Positions 1,312-8,001 of a DNA stretch of 64,000 nucleotides are shown in pieces. Made by a program: the position numbers and the translations under genes. The DNA comes from Pseudomonadota bacterium (GTDB lineage Bacteria; Bdellovibrionota; FAC87; UBA2466): the NCBI GenBank assembly GCA_043718025.1, contig JAYSWN010000020.1, positions 1 through 64,000 of the forward strand, written 5' to 3'. Position 1 is the first letter of the stretch. Each line of letters begins with the position of its first letter. Below the pieces are notes generated by a model, which ran no database searches, was not told the DNA's origin, and saw only the letters and a list, made by a program, of their open reading frames with translations.

Positions 1312-3201
1312 TCAGATCGTGGGGTGGGCAATTTTGTCCGCCCCTTTTTTTTGCCCAAAGGATCGCGCCACAGATTCTGTTGGGGTGCCGCTTGCGCCGC
1401 GCAAGACTCCGCCTAACCAGTCCAAAGAACCTAACGAGGCCGCCCGACCCAAATTACCGCCGTGCTGTCCGGGGTTGGTGACCAAAATAGTCGAAGTGGC
1501 GCCAATCACCTTTGGTTCATTTCCGATGCAGGCCACTTGCGGGCCGCCCGAATCGCCTTGAATGACTCTTTGGCCGGCGTTTCCTTGGCTCGTCAGTGAA
1601 AAGCCTCCAAACTCCCCTTGATTCGTAGGCAGGTAGCCACGGGCAAATAGAAAATTGGGCTGACCACTTTGAACATTAACATTTCGGTTTCGAGCAATCA
1701 TTACTGCGGCGTGGTTAATTAATGCGTCGGTGGCCTCGGGATTCGTGGCCGGTTTAATGTACCGAACGTTGGCGGCACTCTCACAGCTCATTACCGTCCG
1801 AATTACCGCGACGTCATCCCCACCGGTGACCGAGGGGTTGTAATTTGCGACCAAAATCTGGGCGTGAGAAATGGGCTCATTCACTCCGCGAATAGATAAG
1901 CTCTCAAGATCGCCCGGTTCAATACAATGTTTGGCGGTCAAGTAGTCCACTTCACATTTGTCTTCGAGCCCTTTTTGTTTTGAGTGTTTGGGGTTACTCC
2001 GACTCTCGATCGGATTTTCAGAAACGGCGGTGCTTGAGCAATGCGTTTGGCTGCCCGGTTTACTGGTGAAACTCAAAATCAACTCAGCATTCTGTACCGA
2101 ATTCTCAAGGCATTGCCTTTCCTCCGCGTTGAGAGCCTGCGGGCTAAACGCATCAATCGCATTGCTAAAGGGAAAGGACGATCCTCGATCGACTTGGTTG
2201 CCTTGCAGCAGGCCAGCGTTTCCACCGCTACCGCCACGGCCACCGTTACCGGGGGCCGATCCGAGGTTGGCAAAAGGCATTAATCGCTTCAGTGGGGCGA
2301 CGCCTTCGTTACGGTCAAACGGGCGCTGGGGAATTTTTGCCTCAAAACGATTGAAAAAATCTTCCACCGTTTTGAGACCACCGCGATCGACCGGGTTCAA
2401 ATTTTTAGCAAAACCGCGGTACAACTGCCGCAACGTTTCGTTAGCTGAAATACCGCCGTCTTGTTGCACCACCGTTGGGGCAAGGCTCGCATTTAACTCC
2501 AACAGTCCGGCCGGGGTCAGCACCAATTTCTTTTTCTTCAAGGCTTTAGACAAGTCAGCGAAGGTGGGTAGGCGATCGATATTCTTTTCTTTAAATTGAC
2601 CTTTTAATGCTTCGTTAATTTTTCTAGTCAACGGGGTACCTTCGCCGGCCAAAACTAAAGCCTCGCGCGGGAGAACCGCTAATTTGCGACGAGCCAATTT
2701 ACTCAAGATCTGTTCGGTGGTGAGTTTGGGTTCTAGCGTTTTTTCGGTTTCCACATCTACGACCACCGCCAACTTACCCATCAACTCTAATTCGGGAGCG
2801 TCTTTAGTCTCGAGTAAAAGTCTTTCAACCTGCGAAAGTTCACCAACCGTCAGCGCCTTTTTGTTTTTGAGTTTTTCTAACTTTGGCTCTTTAGCGATTA
2901 AGTCTCGCAGTAGTTTTTCCACTTCGGGGAAATCTTTAAGCGCTTTCACGTCGCTGGTTTCTTCGGCGGTATTTTGGAGCACCAGCATCGCGCGACGCAG
3001 CAGCATGGCTTCCAAGGAGTAATTTTTCACCAGGGCGGGATCGCTCATCCCGGTCTGAAATCTTTCGAGATTTGGGCGAAACTTCGGAGCCAAGTCATCC
3101 AGTAAATTATCGCCTTGCAACGGCATAGGTTCGGCCCAGGCTTTCATACCGAGGAGCAGAATTCCGGCAATGGCAATGGTGAGATAGCGTTTGGCCAACA
3201 T
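1312..3201 (-). CDS. Secreted protein with C-terminal trypsin-like (S1) serine protease domain and a long uncharacterised N-terminal region
   Basis: Signal peptide MLAKRYLTIAIAGILLLGMKAWA; triad motifs LTAKHC, DDVAV, QGDSGGP; Gly-rich linker. The start could alternatively be GTG 3210. Confidence 0.8.
   Translation of the reverse strand: MLAKRYLTIAIAGILLLGMKAWAEPMPLQGDNLLDDLAPKFRPNLERFQTGMSDPALVKNYSLEAMLLRRAMLVLQNTAEETSDVKALKDFPEVEKLLRDLIAKEPKLEKLKNKKALTVGELSQVERLLLETKDAPELELMGKLAVVVDVETEKTLEPKLTTEQILSKLARRKLAVLPREALVLAGEGTPLTRKINEALKGQFKEKNIDRLPTFADLSKALKKKKLVLTPAGLLELNASLAPTVVQQDGGISANETLRQLYRGFAKNLNPVDRGGLKTVEDFFNRFEAKIPQRPFDRNEGVAPLKRLMPFANLGSAPGNGGRGGSGGNAGLLQGNQVDRGSSFPFSNAIDAFSPQALNAEERQCLENSVQNAELILSFTSKPGSQTHCSSTAVSENPIESRSNPKHSKQKGLEDKCEVDYLTAKHCIEPGDLESLSIRGVNEPISHAQILVANYNPSVTGGDDVAVIRTVMSCESAANVRYIKPATNPEATDALINHAAVMIARNRNVNVQSGQPNFLFARGYLPTNQGEFGGFSLTSQGNAGQRVIQGDSGGPQVACIGNEPKVIGATSTILVTNPGQHGGNLGRAASLGSLDWLGGVLRGASGTPTESVARSFGQKKGADKIAHPTI
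1321..1352 (+). terminator. Rho-independent terminator for the DsbA gene
   Basis: GGGGTGGGCA-ATTT-TGTCCGCCCC 10-bp stem (2 G-U) followed by T8, 25 nt after the stop codon. Confidence 0.75.
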
Positions 3202-3216
3202 ACAACTCACTCAAAT

Positions 3217-3232: not shown

Positions 3233-3294
3233 GCCCCGGTTTTGAAAAAACCTGGTTTTGGTTAGTAAAATCGAACACTTAAAATAAACCGGCA

Positions 3295-4025
3295 GGCTTC
3301 ACCCGCGGTCAGAATACGCCTTAAAGCTGAGCACTTTGCAGCTCTCTGGCCGTATTCCAGTTGGCGTCAGCCTACGGCTGCGACTCTCTATGATGATTAG
3401 TGGAAGGGGGGGCGTGGCGTCTTTGCTCTCACGCTGCTCGAGGGGGTGGGGCGGCGCTTGCACCCGGGCGTGATTCAGGCGGGCAGTGCAAGGCCGGGCG
3501 TTGGCGGTGTTTCAAGTCGTGCCTTCACCCGCTTTACCTTTTTGTCTTAATCGCTACAACCTCACTTCGGGGCTAGTGCTATTTAGCGGGGGCTAGCCAA
3601 GCGAACTAAATTAAAAGCGTTCCACCCGTTTTCGGAGTTTTTTTTAAACTTTTCTTTCCGGAAAAAGGAGATAAAAAAAATTCAGAGGCATTTCAAAGCC
3701 AGGAAATTTCCATAGGAAACAACCCACTCGACTCGAAGCCTCGCGCAAAAAAGAACCTCCGACGATGACTATAAGACAAGGGAGGGGAACCCAGTGAAAG
3801 GGGTCGTGGCACAATAAGTTTCGCCTCCACGGTACAGCACAACTCGGCAGCACCAGGGTGAAAAGCTAGAGCCTTCCCTTAAGTGAAACGCTAAGAAAAC
3901 CTCCACGCTCCCCACACATCGCCATTTCCACAAGATACTATTTGACGCCCTTTTTCTACAAAATTGAATGCCGAACTCTGCTCCGAGACGTGGCGGTTTT
4001 AACCACCCGCGCAGACGTTAAAGCC
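3295..4025. repeat. ~730-bp degenerate inverted repeat (rod-like hairpin; ncRNA or element-end candidate)
   Basis: Ten complementary blocks share one symmetry axis at ~3660 (coordinate sums 7318-7323), centred on TTTCCGGAAA at 3655-3664. Confidence 0.75.
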
Positions 4026-4146
4026 CCCTCCAGGGCACGGATTGATTACTCTTCGAGGCGCGGTTAGGGCTACGGATAGCCAATCACTCACCGCGGAACG
4101 TGGACGAGAAAAAGGCTCACAAAAAACTCATGGTACTAATTTGTTC

Positions 4147-5079
4147 ATGACGACCACCGCTCAAATCCTAGATGCAAAAGCGAAACAACTGGCAAAAACT
4201 CTTCTTCACACCGAGGGGCTTGTGCTCTCAACCCTTATGGAGATGAGTCGAGCGCGGGTCTTTGCGGAGTTAAATCACTCAGGCGTGTTTGATTACTGCC
4301 TTCGCGCATTGGGCATGAGTAAAGAACAGTCTTACTATTTTAAGAAAGTGGCCGAGGTTTCGATGCATGTGCCGGAACTCAAGGCAGCCATTGTTCAGGG
4401 TGAACTATCTCTCTCTTCGGCTCGCCGCATCGCCCCTATTCTCAATGCGGCAAACCAGGCTGAGTGGATTACCAAGGCTAAGGAGTTGAAACAGAGTGAG
4501 CTTGAAAAGGCGGTGAGCGAAGTGAACCCGCAGGCTCACCCTCGAGATCGGATAAGACCCGTAGCCAAAAACGTATCGGAGCTTCGGGTAGCTATCGATG
4601 ACGTAACGGATGGTAATCTCACCGTGCTCAAAGACCTGCTCTCTTCCAAGCTAAGACGCCCGGCAACGTTGGCCGATGTAATTGCGTGGGCCGCGAAAGA
4701 GACTAGAGAGCGGCATGACCCTGAGGCTAAGGCCAAGCGGGCAAGAAGAGTTTCTCCAGGAAAACCCGAAACACAGGATTTGCTGAGGGCTAACGCCTCA
4801 ATCAACGTTCGGACTCCAGCCGCCGTTATTGGAGCAATGCTAAGGAAACCGCAACGGCTGCCAATCCCCGCCGCCGTTCGTCACGCGGTAGTGCGCCGGC
4901 AAGGAGCGCAGTGTTCTTACGTTTCCCAAGACAACCGGCGTTGTGACCAGAAAAAATGGCTGGATTTGCATCATCGTATTGCGGTGGCACAGGGCGGGCT
5001 TAACCAACTCGAGAATCTAGCGTTTCTTTGTCACCGTCACCACCACGCGCTGCATGGAGCGAAACACTCGCCGTCATAA
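4147..5079 (+). CDS. HNH endonuclease with DUF222-like helical N-terminal region
   Basis: C-terminal IPAAVRHAV..QCSY....RC....LDLHHRIAVAQGG.NQLENLAFLCHRHH; N-terminal FDYC...LGMS...PEL...IVQGELSLS pattern. ATG 4147 preferred over TTG 4042. Confidence 0.85.
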   Translation: MTTTAQILDAKAKQLAKTLLHTEGLVLSTLMEMSRARVFAELNHSGVFDYCLRALGMSKEQSYYFKKVAEVSMHVPELKAAIVQGELSLSSARRIAPILNAANQAEWITKAKELKQSELEKAVSEVNPQAHPRDRIRPVAKNVSELRVAIDDVTDGNLTVLKDLLSSKLRRPATLADVIAWAAKETRERHDPEAKAKRARRVSPGKPETQDLLRANASINVRTPAAVIGAMLRKPQRLPIPAAVRHAVVRRQGAQCSYVSQDNRRCDQKKWLDLHHRIAVAQGGLNQLENLAFLCHRHHHALHGAKHSPS

Positions 5080-5083
5080 AGAA

Positions 5084-6016
5084 TCACGGTTGCGTGAGGG
5101 AAGCCGTAGTGAGCAGCCAGAACGCCGATCCACGGCTGGTGCTAGGTAAGCCTAAGGCCGACCACAGGGGGGTTAGTTTTCGCGCCAGAGATTCCTCAAC
5201 GCCAAAATAGAACATCGGCGCAATCACCCGCGTGTTTCCGCCGCCGCCCAGCAAAAAGGCGGAGAGCAGGTACTGCTCAGAGTAATAACGCTCGGCAACC
5301 TCATTAGGGTAGTCCCACGGAATATTGATGTCGTGAAAACCAACGGCGATGCCCGGCTTTAAACGGGGAAGCACGTCTAAAAATGAAACCGTTACGTCTG
5401 AATTCATAAACGAGCGGTGGGAGTTATCGATAAAGAGCACGTCGCCCGCTTCCAGCTCATCGAAGATTGTTAGGTCCACCGACTCCAGCGGTTGCCGTAG
5501 ACAACGATCGGCCAAGGCGTCGATCTCGGCGCGCGGCTCAGGGTCAATCGAAGTGATTTTAGTCTCCAGCGACCACCGCTTGATTGCCCAATGCACGAAC
5601 TTGGTGGAATTTCCCGAACCCACTTCAAAGTAACGCTTCGGTTTTTGCTGTTTCACGATTGAAAGTAGCGAAATGGCGTCCAGCGGCGGCAGCATCGGGT
5701 TTTGCCAAGCAGGCAAATCGGGACGATTCGCCGCAGAGACATGCGGAATCGCTTTTAATTCAGCGGCCAGGTCCACCAAAAGAGCAATCTGCTTTTCGTA
5801 TTCGTAATGATGGCGGCGCAAAATTGTGGTCAATCCCGAGTGCGGCGGCTTACCATAACCGTAACGTGCTTGCGACTCGAAGCGATACTCCAAAAAAATT
5901 GGATAGCGCTGCCCACGTAACATTAAAAACCAATTGCGTAAGCGGGGATGATTTTCTAAAAAGGTCCACAGAAACCATGCCCAGAGTCTTCGCCAGGGCC
6001 TTAAGATTGCGGTCAT
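5084..6016 (-). CDS. Class I SAM-dependent methyltransferase (Methyltransf_24-like)
   Basis: FEVGSGNST, SIDPEP, LFIDNSH, FHDI motifs. Confidence 0.85.
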   Translation of the reverse strand: MTAILRPWRRLWAWFLWTFLENHPRLRNWFLMLRGQRYPIFLEYRFESQARYGYGKPPHSGLTTILRRHHYEYEKQIALLVDLAAELKAIPHVSAANRPDLPAWQNPMLPPLDAISLLSIVKQQKPKRYFEVGSGNSTKFVHWAIKRWSLETKITSIDPEPRAEIDALADRCLRQPLESVDLTIFDELEAGDVLFIDNSHRSFMNSDVTVSFLDVLPRLKPGIAVGFHDINIPWDYPNEVAERYYSEQYLLSAFLLGGGGNTRVIAPMFYFGVEESLARKLTPLWSALGLPSTSRGSAFWLLTTASLTQP

Positions 6017-6024
6017 CGGTTCCC

Positions 6025-8001
6025 CTACATTTTAATAAATTGGCGGTATTGCGTAACCCAAGACTGAAACATGAGTACGGTCCACAGTGCATGCTGGTGG
6101 TTAGCCAGACCATCACGGTGATCGCACCAGGCTTTGCGAACCACGGCCGCACTCAGAAGGGCCTCGCCCTCTAGTCGATCTTCGCGCAGCAGGTCTTCGG
6201 CCCAGTCTTTAAGCTCGCCTCTCAACCAGTGCTCCACGGGTAGCGAAAAACCCTTTTTGGGGCGCTCGATGAGGGCGCGCGGCACGTGTTTGTCGAGCAC
6301 TTGCCGCATCAAATACTTGGTAACGCCACCGTGCAATTTCCACTCTTTGGGAAAAGACCACGCCAGTTCCACCACCCGGTGGTCCAACAAGGGCACCCGC
6401 ACTTCTAACCCCACCGCCATGCTGGCCCGGTCCACTTTGGTCAGCACGTCGTCACACAGGTAAGTGGCTTGATCCCAGTACATCATTTGATCGATCAGGT
6501 GCTTGGCCTGGGGGGGGATTTCGGCGGCGCGACCGCCGGGCCACACTTCGGTCTTTCCAATCACGTCGCGGGGCGACGGCCACTGGGTGACCAGTGTTCG
6601 GTAAACTTCACGGGGGTTGGTCTCTTTAATCAGCTCGGACAATTTGCGAATTTTTTCTTCCGGGTTGTTGCCGGTGGTGATGCTGGGAAACAGCTCTTTT
6701 GTCGTATCCAACGCGGTTTTCCAAAAGCGCGAGGGAATCGCGTCCAGCCCCTGCCCCATCAAACTGCGGAGTGGGGCGGGAATGAGCGAGGTAAAGTCCG
6801 AAACCTTTTCTCCCCAGGCATAGCGCGGGTAACCGGCAAAGAGTTCATCGCCGCCATCTCCCGAAAGCGCTACCGTCACCGACTGCCGCGCACACCGACT
6901 CACCAAATGGGTGGGAATTTGCGAAGCGTCCCCCAATGGCTCATCAAAGACTTGCGACAGCGTAGGAATTAAATCCAAAGTTTCGCGGGCGTTGAGCTTT
7001 TGCGCGTGGTGATCGGTTCTTAAATGCGCCGCCACGGCCGCGGCATAGGTAGACTCATCGTACTCGGCCTCTTCGAAACCAATCGTAAACGTTTTCACGG
7101 GTGAAGTGCTCTGCTTTTGCATCAACGCCACGATGAGTGATGAGTCGATGCCTCCCGATAAGAACGCCCCCAGAGGAACGTCCGAAAGACGGCGCTTTTG
7201 AATTGAATCACTAAGCAGCGTTTCAAAGGTAGCCTCCGCGTCACGCATCGTCCCCGCAAAAGGGTTCGATAAACCGTGCGCCGCGGCCTGGGCCAGCGAC
7301 CAAAATTCGCCTTCTTTTATTTGAAACTGACGATCGATACGTAACCAGCGGCCCGGCGTGAGTTTCTTAATTTCACGGAAGACCGAATAGGGGGTGGGGA
7401 TATACCCGTAGCGAAAAAGTAAGGCGAGCGCTTCGTAGTCCAACGTGCCGCGAAAACCAGGCGTCGCGAAGAGCGCCTTCAGCTCGGAAGCAAAAAGAAA
7501 CTTTCCGTCGACCACGCCGTAGTAAAGCGGCTTTTCGCCCATGCGATCGCGCGCTAAGAGCAGTTGTTGGGTCTCTCTATCCCAAACGGCCAGCGCGAAC
7601 ATGCCGTTGGCCTTTTTCAACGTCGCTTCGATACCCCACACTTCAAAGCCCGCAAGCAGCACTTCGGTGTCGGAGTGGCCGCGAAAGGCGGATGAGAATT
7701 TTCCGGAAGTTTCGAGTTCTTTCTTGAGCTCCAGGTAGTTGTAGATTTCGCCGTTCAACTCCAACGTGTAGCGACCGCGGCTTGAGTCCATGGGCTGCCG
7801 ACCGTTTGTCGATAGGTCCAAGATTGCCAACCTTCGAAAAGAAAAGGCGACTCCTGCCTTAGGCTCTTGCCACACCAAAAAGTCATCGGGCCCGCGGTGG
7901 GCCAAGGCTTCGCCCATTTTCATGGCGATGGCCTCGCGCTCAGAATTAGGAAAGGCGTTGACGCCGTCGGGAGGGGAGAAAAAGCCTGCTATGCCGCACA
8001 T
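6025..8001 (-). CDS. asnB: Asparagine synthase (glutamine-hydrolysing)-family amidotransferase, glycan-locus type
   Basis: N-terminal MCGIAG (Ntn Cys), HRGPD, NGEIYN, LSGGIDSS, SGDGGDELF, KKGF. Confidence 0.93.
   Translation of the reverse strand: MCGIAGFFSPPDGVNAFPNSEREAIAMKMGEALAHRGPDDFLVWQEPKAGVAFSFRRLAILDLSTNGRQPMDSSRGRYTLELNGEIYNYLELKKELETSGKFSSAFRGHSDTEVLLAGFEVWGIEATLKKANGMFALAVWDRETQQLLLARDRMGEKPLYYGVVDGKFLFASELKALFATPGFRGTLDYEALALLFRYGYIPTPYSVFREIKKLTPGRWLRIDRQFQIKEGEFWSLAQAAAHGLSNPFAGTMRDAEATFETLLSDSIQKRRLSDVPLGAFLSGGIDSSLIVALMQKQSTSPVKTFTIGFEEAEYDESTYAAAVAAHLRTDHHAQKLNARETLDLIPTLSQVFDEPLGDASQIPTHLVSRCARQSVTVALSGDGGDELFAGYPRYAWGEKVSDFTSLIPAPLRSLMGQGLDAIPSRFWKTALDTTKELFPSITTGNNPEEKIRKLSELIKETNPREVYRTLVTQWPSPRDVIGKTEVWPGGRAAEIPPQAKHLIDQMMYWDQATYLCDDVLTKVDRASMAVGLEVRVPLLDHRVVELAWSFPKEWKLHGGVTKYLMRQVLDKHVPRALIERPKKGFSLPVEHWLRGELKDWAEDLLREDRLEGEALLSAAVVRKAWCDHRDGLANHQHALWTVLMFQSWVTQYRQFIKM

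Follow-up and report, generated by a model that had tools for sequence, protein, structure and literature searches.

Genes of the REP13E12/DUF222-HNH type are dispersed and multi-copy, and their products combine a helical N-terminal domain with a C-terminal HNH domain; we know of no mechanism for them. Insertion sequence (IS) ends without a transposase, flanked by a target duplication, characterize MICs, MITEs and transporter ISs, which occur in many copies with short deleted derivatives and can be moved in trans by a cognate transposase (PMC3129680, PMC4133298). For the ISL3 family (PF01610, NF033550), 8-bp target repeats are reported (PMC3469429). An HNH gene within a non-autonomous mobile element, with non-coding DNA upstream, is found in IscB/HEARO-omegaRNA systems and ISC transposons (PMC4810608, PMC13565253), while short binding sites are described for the ParB-parS, Noc-NBS and KorB systems, where one paper gives TTTCC...GGAAA as the NBS consensus and CACGTG as the parS core (PMC7383237).

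The locus described here lies at positions 3382-5085 of the window, by which we mean the whole stretch of 64,000 nucleotides that was analysed. We regard it as likely that it represents a transposase-less cassette with ISL3 ends that is probably moved in trans and carries as passenger a maintained gene for an HNH nuclease with predicted ParB-like binding to its own sites. The vehicle, a mobile insertion cassette, is conventional and of a known kind, and resembles MICs, MITEs and transporter ISs in its ends, target duplication, copy number and short deleted derivatives. It differs from MICs and MITEs in its passenger, a nuclease under purifying selection with palindromic sites of its own and a 765-bp leader, and in the failure to find a cognate transposase in the assembly. 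With ISL3 elements it has both ends and the 8-bp duplication in common; it contains no transposase remnant, and the orientation of its HNH gene is the reverse of that of the ancestral transposase. The C-terminal HNH domain and the dispersed, multi-copy gene bear out a likeness to DUF222-HNH dispersed repeats drawn in the original prediction, but the cassette has defined IS ends and its HNH protein has no match to PF02720. In contrast to IscB/HEARO, the protein lacks RuvC and the leader shows neither an omegaRNA match nor a conserved fold; and unlike ISC elements, which according to PMC4810608 have IS200/605-type ends without terminal inverted repeats (TIR) or target duplication, the cassette has both. 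ParB, Noc and KorB have a fold similar to that predicted for aa 19-129, and the short sites of the cassette resemble the NBS/parS consensus, but the HNH protein has no CTPase domain, is fused to HNH and has a predicted 13-bp site with an odd centre. The freely accessible literature searched contained no description of an ISL3-ended HNH cassette or of a ParB-like site for a DUF222-HNH protein.

Boundaries, copies and ends of the cassette

A BLAST search of the host genome (G000) returned ~49 loci of the element with sharp common ends at 3382 and 5085, and contig depth rises from ~9 in the flanks to up to 257 inside the element. Its features in the window are as follows.

3374..3381, + strand: left copy of the 8-bp target-site duplication (ACGGCTGC), 7/8 identical to 5086-5093
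3382-5085: whole element, 1,704 bp; its inverted ends are imperfect and its target duplication measures 8 bp
3382..3407, + strand: left terminal inverted repeat, corresponding to the ISL3 downstream (3') end; copies stop sharply here
3407..3913: faint degenerate mirror repeat, axis 3659/3660, ~507 bp, arms ~54% identical in the majority sequence
3638..3680: central imperfect palindrome of ~43 bp, T-run ... TTTCCGGAAA ... A-run, present in most copies
3707..3719: palindrome of 13 bp, TTTCC-N3-GGAAA, which the HNH protein is predicted to bind; in other copies a 184-bp MITE is nested at this point
3906..3946, + strand: CGCTCCCC...TTGAC motif, TTGAC ending 200 nt 5' of the ATG; start zone of most gene-removing deletions
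4131..4146, + strand: TGnTA extended -10-like box, 7 nt before the ATG
4147..5079, + strand: HNH gene, 310 aa, its stop codon within the right inverted repeat
4751..4763: degenerate second 13-bp palindrome inside the gene, codon ~202; at the same place in homologs, often perfect
5060..5085, - strand: right terminal inverted repeat, corresponding to the upstream (5') end of the ISL3 element L174; 19/26 identical
5086..5093, + strand: right copy of the 8-bp target-site duplication (ACGGTTGC)

The 8-bp flanks of the six copies with both ends agree at 7/8 (window), 8/8, 6/8, 6/8, 5/8 and 1/8 (C35) positions, which is at least 6/8 in four of the six. A full HNH gene is carried by three copies (C102, C35, C180), a split and frameshifted one by the copy on C209, and the other copies are fragments or have internal deletions. 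Gene-removing deletions begin in 8 of 11 cases at 3891-3969, and one in a related genome (G002) starts in the same motif zone. Many copies contain a further insertion, a 184-bp MITE nested at 3712 in both orientations (e.g. C35:14604-14787), which has ~23-bp inverted ends and TNA flanks and whose end matches adjoin a flank resembling the cassette's 13-bp palindrome in 35 of 57 cases; we take this MITE to be IS5-like. The possibility of an assembly artefact, raised in the original prediction, was removed by Logan contigs (run X1) that run through the axis and both junctions and differ at 0 positions, all three DNA runs belonging to one study. No empty-site allele was seen among these three runs, a result that carries no weight.

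G000 contains the end motif 40 times, each of 400 other genomes from the phylum 0-2 times. Metagenomes contained it at 36 loci, most of which lie within ORFs and look like chance coding matches, while four adjoin ISL3 transposases scoring above the Pfam and NCBIfam cut-offs. The left end of the cassette is identical at 21-24 of 26 positions to the 3' ends of four ISL3 loci (22/26 for L174 and 24/26 for L188). L174 is a complete ISL3 element of 1,438 bp (without target duplication in its flanks, 4/8), and both of its ends match the two ends of the cassette, the right end of which has in common with the L174 5' end the inner letters that distinguish the two ends. The similarity between cassette and ISL3 is gone after ~26-30 bp. 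Ends of this type are also used elsewhere: HNH-free MITEs of 283 and 282 bp in genome G010 have the same ends and duplications of 7/8 and 8/8, and the HNH copy of G002 has the same kind of end ~60 nt past its stop codon. The ISL3-type inverted ends together with the 8-bp duplication, overlooked in the original prediction, point to an ordinary DDE transposition route.

No transposase or transposase remnant was found inside the cassette, and no ISL3 transposase in G000 (92% complete in 234 contigs, in which repeats are often unassembled) or in three genomes of the same genus; we therefore infer movement in trans. The G000 assembly also lacks a recA match at E<=1e-50 and a parB match at E<=1e-30, a sign of missing core genes. 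Other donors searched for in G000 were rejected: IS256 and IS1595 are absent, and the ends of the single IS4/5-type fragment and of the single RAYT-like Y1 gene differ from those of the cassette. ISL3 elements at 30 loci of related genomes have only the general GG-TCTT register in common with it and otherwise differ in their ends. A generic inverted-end detector reached p<=0.01 at 13 of 54 homolog loci with 0 clean duplications, but missed the ends in the window itself, so that its blanks are uninformative. A metagenome scan with the HNH protein as query gave 0 confirmed loci.

We envisage that an HNH gene with its native leader would have been captured between two ISL3 ends, in the orientation opposite to a transposase since lost. 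An ISL3 transposase, now lost or unassembled, would have spread the cassette in trans, and most copies would then have shed the HNH gene by internal deletion.

The HNH gene and its protein

The 310-aa product is predicted to consist of a helical ParB-like/DUF222-like domain (aa 1-130), a beta-helix-helix middle part, a flexible linker and a McrA-type HNH domain (~aa 242-307), in which the HNH/zinc residues C256, C266, H276, C295 and H298 are invariant in 32 homologs. As proposed in the original prediction, it is not an IscB: NF040563 matches aa 243-304 only, with 25.5 bits against a cut-off of 175, and the structural model contains no RuvC fold. PF02720 (DUF222) gave no match for the protein or the genome and weak matches in 4 of 34 homologs (best E 9e-4), and an Atlas look-alike cluster (score 0.95) carries the name DUF222 for 12% of its members.

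The N-terminal domain was modelled with a pLDDT of 96. Its top VIA match is a ParB-parS DNA-binding domain (Z 7.1, rmsd 3.0, 97 aligned residues), with KorB and Spo0J among the top six; Foldseek gave a TM of 0.54-0.56 at E 0.3-0.5 (range E 0.29-0.5), hhalign an E of 6.6e-5 at 64% probability, and HTH_ParB matched weakly in 15 of 34 homolog N-termini, all of these values lying below confident thresholds (VIA Z <8 for a helical domain). The models lend moderate support to a fold like that of the DNA-binding domain of ParB, Noc and KorB. The protein is predicted to bind the 13-bp palindromes of its leader and linker, would do so as a dimer, and would nick or cut nearby.

The gene is under purifying selection between copies, with 54 synonymous versus 16 non-synonymous codons changed in 200; pairs of intact copies show 0-6 differences at 170 second codon positions, and 14/86 to 24/79 at four-fold degenerate sites. 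This counts against a purely neutral passenger. Relatives of the gene are multi-copy in 25 of 41 genomes, with up to 51 matches.

Translation would start at an ATG at position 4147 that has no Shine-Dalgarno (SD) sequence, as the original prediction had noted. The TGnTA box in front of it recurs at 25 of 62 homolog starts versus 24 of 2000 random windows, and a sigma-70 scan did not pick it up before the HNH gene. The box is likely a leaderless promoter, and leaderless transcription would explain the missing SD. Further upstream, the CGCTCCCC...TTGAC motif is found in 23 of 62 homolog leaders, 173-200 nt before the start, versus 3 of 2000 random windows. A small RNA encoded in the ~130-155 nt from TTGAC to the start was considered and rejected: z averages -0.6 on either strand, with 5 of 23 values below -2, and a -10 box is missing. 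Two copies in genome G001 (L031 and L032) agree at ~90% of positions in the gene and 5' of TTGAC, and at only 59% in the ~170 nt from TTGAC to the start, the length of which is kept.

The leader and its mirror repeat

The original prediction interpreted the non-coding stretch upstream of the gene as a rod-like palindrome of ~730 nt, which would form one unit with the HNH gene as an RNA or single-stranded DNA partner. The ten anchor strings on which this was built are present at their positions, with coordinate sums of 7318-7323, and the non-coding gap and the HNH gene do belong to one unit; the rod as functional partner is not supported. The region folds no better than shuffled sequence, with MFE z values of +1.39 (plus) and -0.31 (minus) for 3240-4146, and of +0.2/-0.6 as RNA and -0.9/-0.3 as DNA for 3382-3940. 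Along the anchor diagonals the ungapped Watson-Crick fraction is 0.28-0.33. The extent was overestimated as well: the repeated element begins only at 3382, so that the three outermost anchors have their left halves (3295-3357) in the single-copy flank, where depth is 9 compared with up to 257 inside. A G-U bias on the plus strand could not be confirmed (26 G-U versus 23 A-C mismatches over 3295-4025, and 19 versus 18 inside the element), nor could covariation. Among 58 homolog loci, a long upstream palindrome was detected at a single one, in a crude screen (z>4, at least 150 aligned columns, 12 shuffles per locus) that the window itself passes.

What remains is a faint mirror repeat between 3407 and 3913. 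The mirror score of the window copy (3382-3940) is equalled by 3 of 150 whole shuffles, 10 of 150 half shuffles and 6 of 200 genome windows. A higher score (56.5 versus 43.5 for the window copy) is obtained for the majority sequence of 37 copies, in which 146 of 268 positions are identical over 3407-3913; it is equalled by 1 of 500 half shuffles, or 3 of 500 without the central hairpin; as the region was picked post hoc, all these p-values are optimistic. The greater symmetry of the majority sequence suggests an old inverted duplication rather than chance. The repeat has not been preserved as a helix: variants at paired columns of the majority alignment are one-sided in 117 cases, compensatory in 2 and double-broken in 2, while at mismatch columns pairing is restored by 60 of 158 variants, near the chance expectation of 1/3. 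The G002 leader aligns with the right arm at 145 of 247 positions (reached by 0 of 300 shuffles), and no mirror partner of this arm was found in G002 (272 of 300 shuffles reach the score). That the left arm is an inverted copy of the G002 leader was rejected as not significant (188 of 300 shuffles reach). The mirror repeat appears real but faint, without conservation in homologs, and may be a decayed inverted duplication in the leader, any function of which would be exerted as double-stranded DNA sites and not as an RNA rod.

One could still suppose that the leader is transcribed into a structured RNA, as a rod or in another fold, which acts as partner or regulator of the nuclease. The position upstream of an HNH gene resembles that of omegaRNA, as described in PMC13565253, the mirror symmetry is more pronounced in the majority sequence, and between intact copies the leader diverges by only ~6-18% compared with 16-30% at four-fold sites. 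However, this low divergence could reflect either constraint or gene conversion among the ~40 leader copies, none of the 120-nt alifold windows in the leader exceeds |z| 1.9, Rfam yielded nothing better than E 0.8 for the leader, and the folding z values lie around zero on both strands. Variants at paired columns mostly break pairs, the right arm stands alone in G002, and the nested MITE shifts the axis in many copies. We consider such an RNA highly improbable. The folding comparisons with shuffles, the tests for covariation and G-U bias, the alifold windows and the Rfam search all being negative, the rod is rejected as RNA and as DNA. In place of this false lead stands an anatomy open to testing: the ends are defined, the donor IS family has a name and intact examples, and there is a candidate recognition site.

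Short palindromes and the spread of the gene

Of 61 homolog leaders, 32 contain a perfect palindrome whose arms measure 6 bp or more, versus 13.8 expected. The type of palindrome is associated with the protein clade, TTTCC-N2-4-GGAAA being found upstream of 23 of 33 proteins of one supported clade versus 2 of 22 outside it (88 of 1000 at random), and CACGTG-type palindromes upstream of 0 of the former and 5 of the latter; the comparison comprises 55 rows after duplicates and broken or short-flank loci had been dropped, near-copies inflate the association, and labels shared by kin make it no proof of co-evolution. In the gene itself, some match to the palindrome near codon 202 is present in 21 of 54 ORFs, and copies in genome G017 have one palindrome variant at both places, upstream and in the gene. 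Counts of TTTCC-GGAAA are 25 in G014, 17 in G001 and 10 in G027, with 0-2 for the reversed control. Three TTTCCTGAGGAAA sites with 25-bp spacing lie at G014:C13:104952-105014. If the protein binds and cuts its own palindromes, this would offer a mechanism for a large, unexplained multi-copy HNH family and a set of compact site-specific nucleases with natural specificity variants.

A perfect TTTCCTNAGGAAA site was found ~50 bp inside the 5' end of the intact ISL3 element (L174:3023-3035), and a 13-bp site near another ISL3 fragment. A host factor could explain the palindrome in the L174 end equally well, and on this reading all the palindromes would be host-protein sites, while the gene would be kept by selection at the level of the host, e.g. 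as a stress or defence nuclease, and ride passively. Apart from the sites in an unrelated ISL3 end and near another ISL3 fragment, this would agree with the presence of the lineage's LexA box in 12 homolog leaders, mostly at ~-29, which implies that many family members are host-regulated; no such box was found in the leader in the window. Yet the site type changes with the protein clade, the in-gene copy is kept in frame, PADLOC returned no match for any of three proteins (0/3), and most copies in G000 have no gene, so that we consider host ownership of the sites very unlikely. That the palindrome itself is a LexA box was rejected, as it occurs at lexA in 1 of 30 and at recA in 1 of 28 cases, which is chance level. 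In most genomes of the family, lexA is preceded by a LexA-type box, CATAC-N4-GTATG (L210-L235; dyad in 23 of 30), which is absent in G000 and G003; directly before recA it is not enriched.

The same sites may be read in a different way, namely that the HNH protein drives its own spread or maintenance by cutting cognate palindromes and promoting recombination or gene conversion, either from copy to copy or into sites that bear a palindrome, the ISL3 ends being one vehicle that it colonised. Selection across dispersed copies of the gene, variant blocks common to copies, and a family that is multi-copy in many relatives without ISL3-type ends would all fit such activity, as would the high palindrome counts in several genomes rich in the TTTCC clade; the site in the 5' end of L174 may suggest a route of capture. 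But the 8-bp duplications and ISL3 ends are signatures of DDE transposition, HNH-free MITEs with the same ends move too, and no empty site or homing allele was found. We therefore regard self-driven spread of this cassette as unlikely, and retain transposition in trans between ISL3 ends as the better explanation.

A broader idea, which we put forward tentatively and with more doubt than confidence, concerns the family as a whole. A ParB-like, protein-guided nuclease may recognise palindromes in its own leader and coding sequence, actively maintain or spread its own gene, and colonise IS shells such as ISL3. It would thus serve DDE-type elements in the way that TnpB/IscB serve IS200/605, though with no guide RNA, and its recognition helix and site would have diverged in step across clades. 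Were this true, it would provide natural nuclease-site pairs and a mechanism for the DUF222-HNH family.

Several repeats and genes in the vicinity or in related genomes deserve mention. HNH homologs at L056 (G014:C4), L045/L046 (G004) and L120 (G003:C275) are bracketed by unrelated inverted modules of 37-95 bp, some with CACGTG palindromes and without clear target duplications. The RAYT-like Y1 gene of G000 (C53:11437-12200) lies between inverted REP repeats of 34 bp; many contigs have further copies of these repeats, including a copy at C102:67846, just past the window. Divergent from the cassette, the window encodes at 1312-3210 (- strand) a protein of 632 aa that is probably secreted and whose C-terminal domain is weakly trypsin-like, and a similar serine-protease-like ORF is located inside the both-ended copy on C3.
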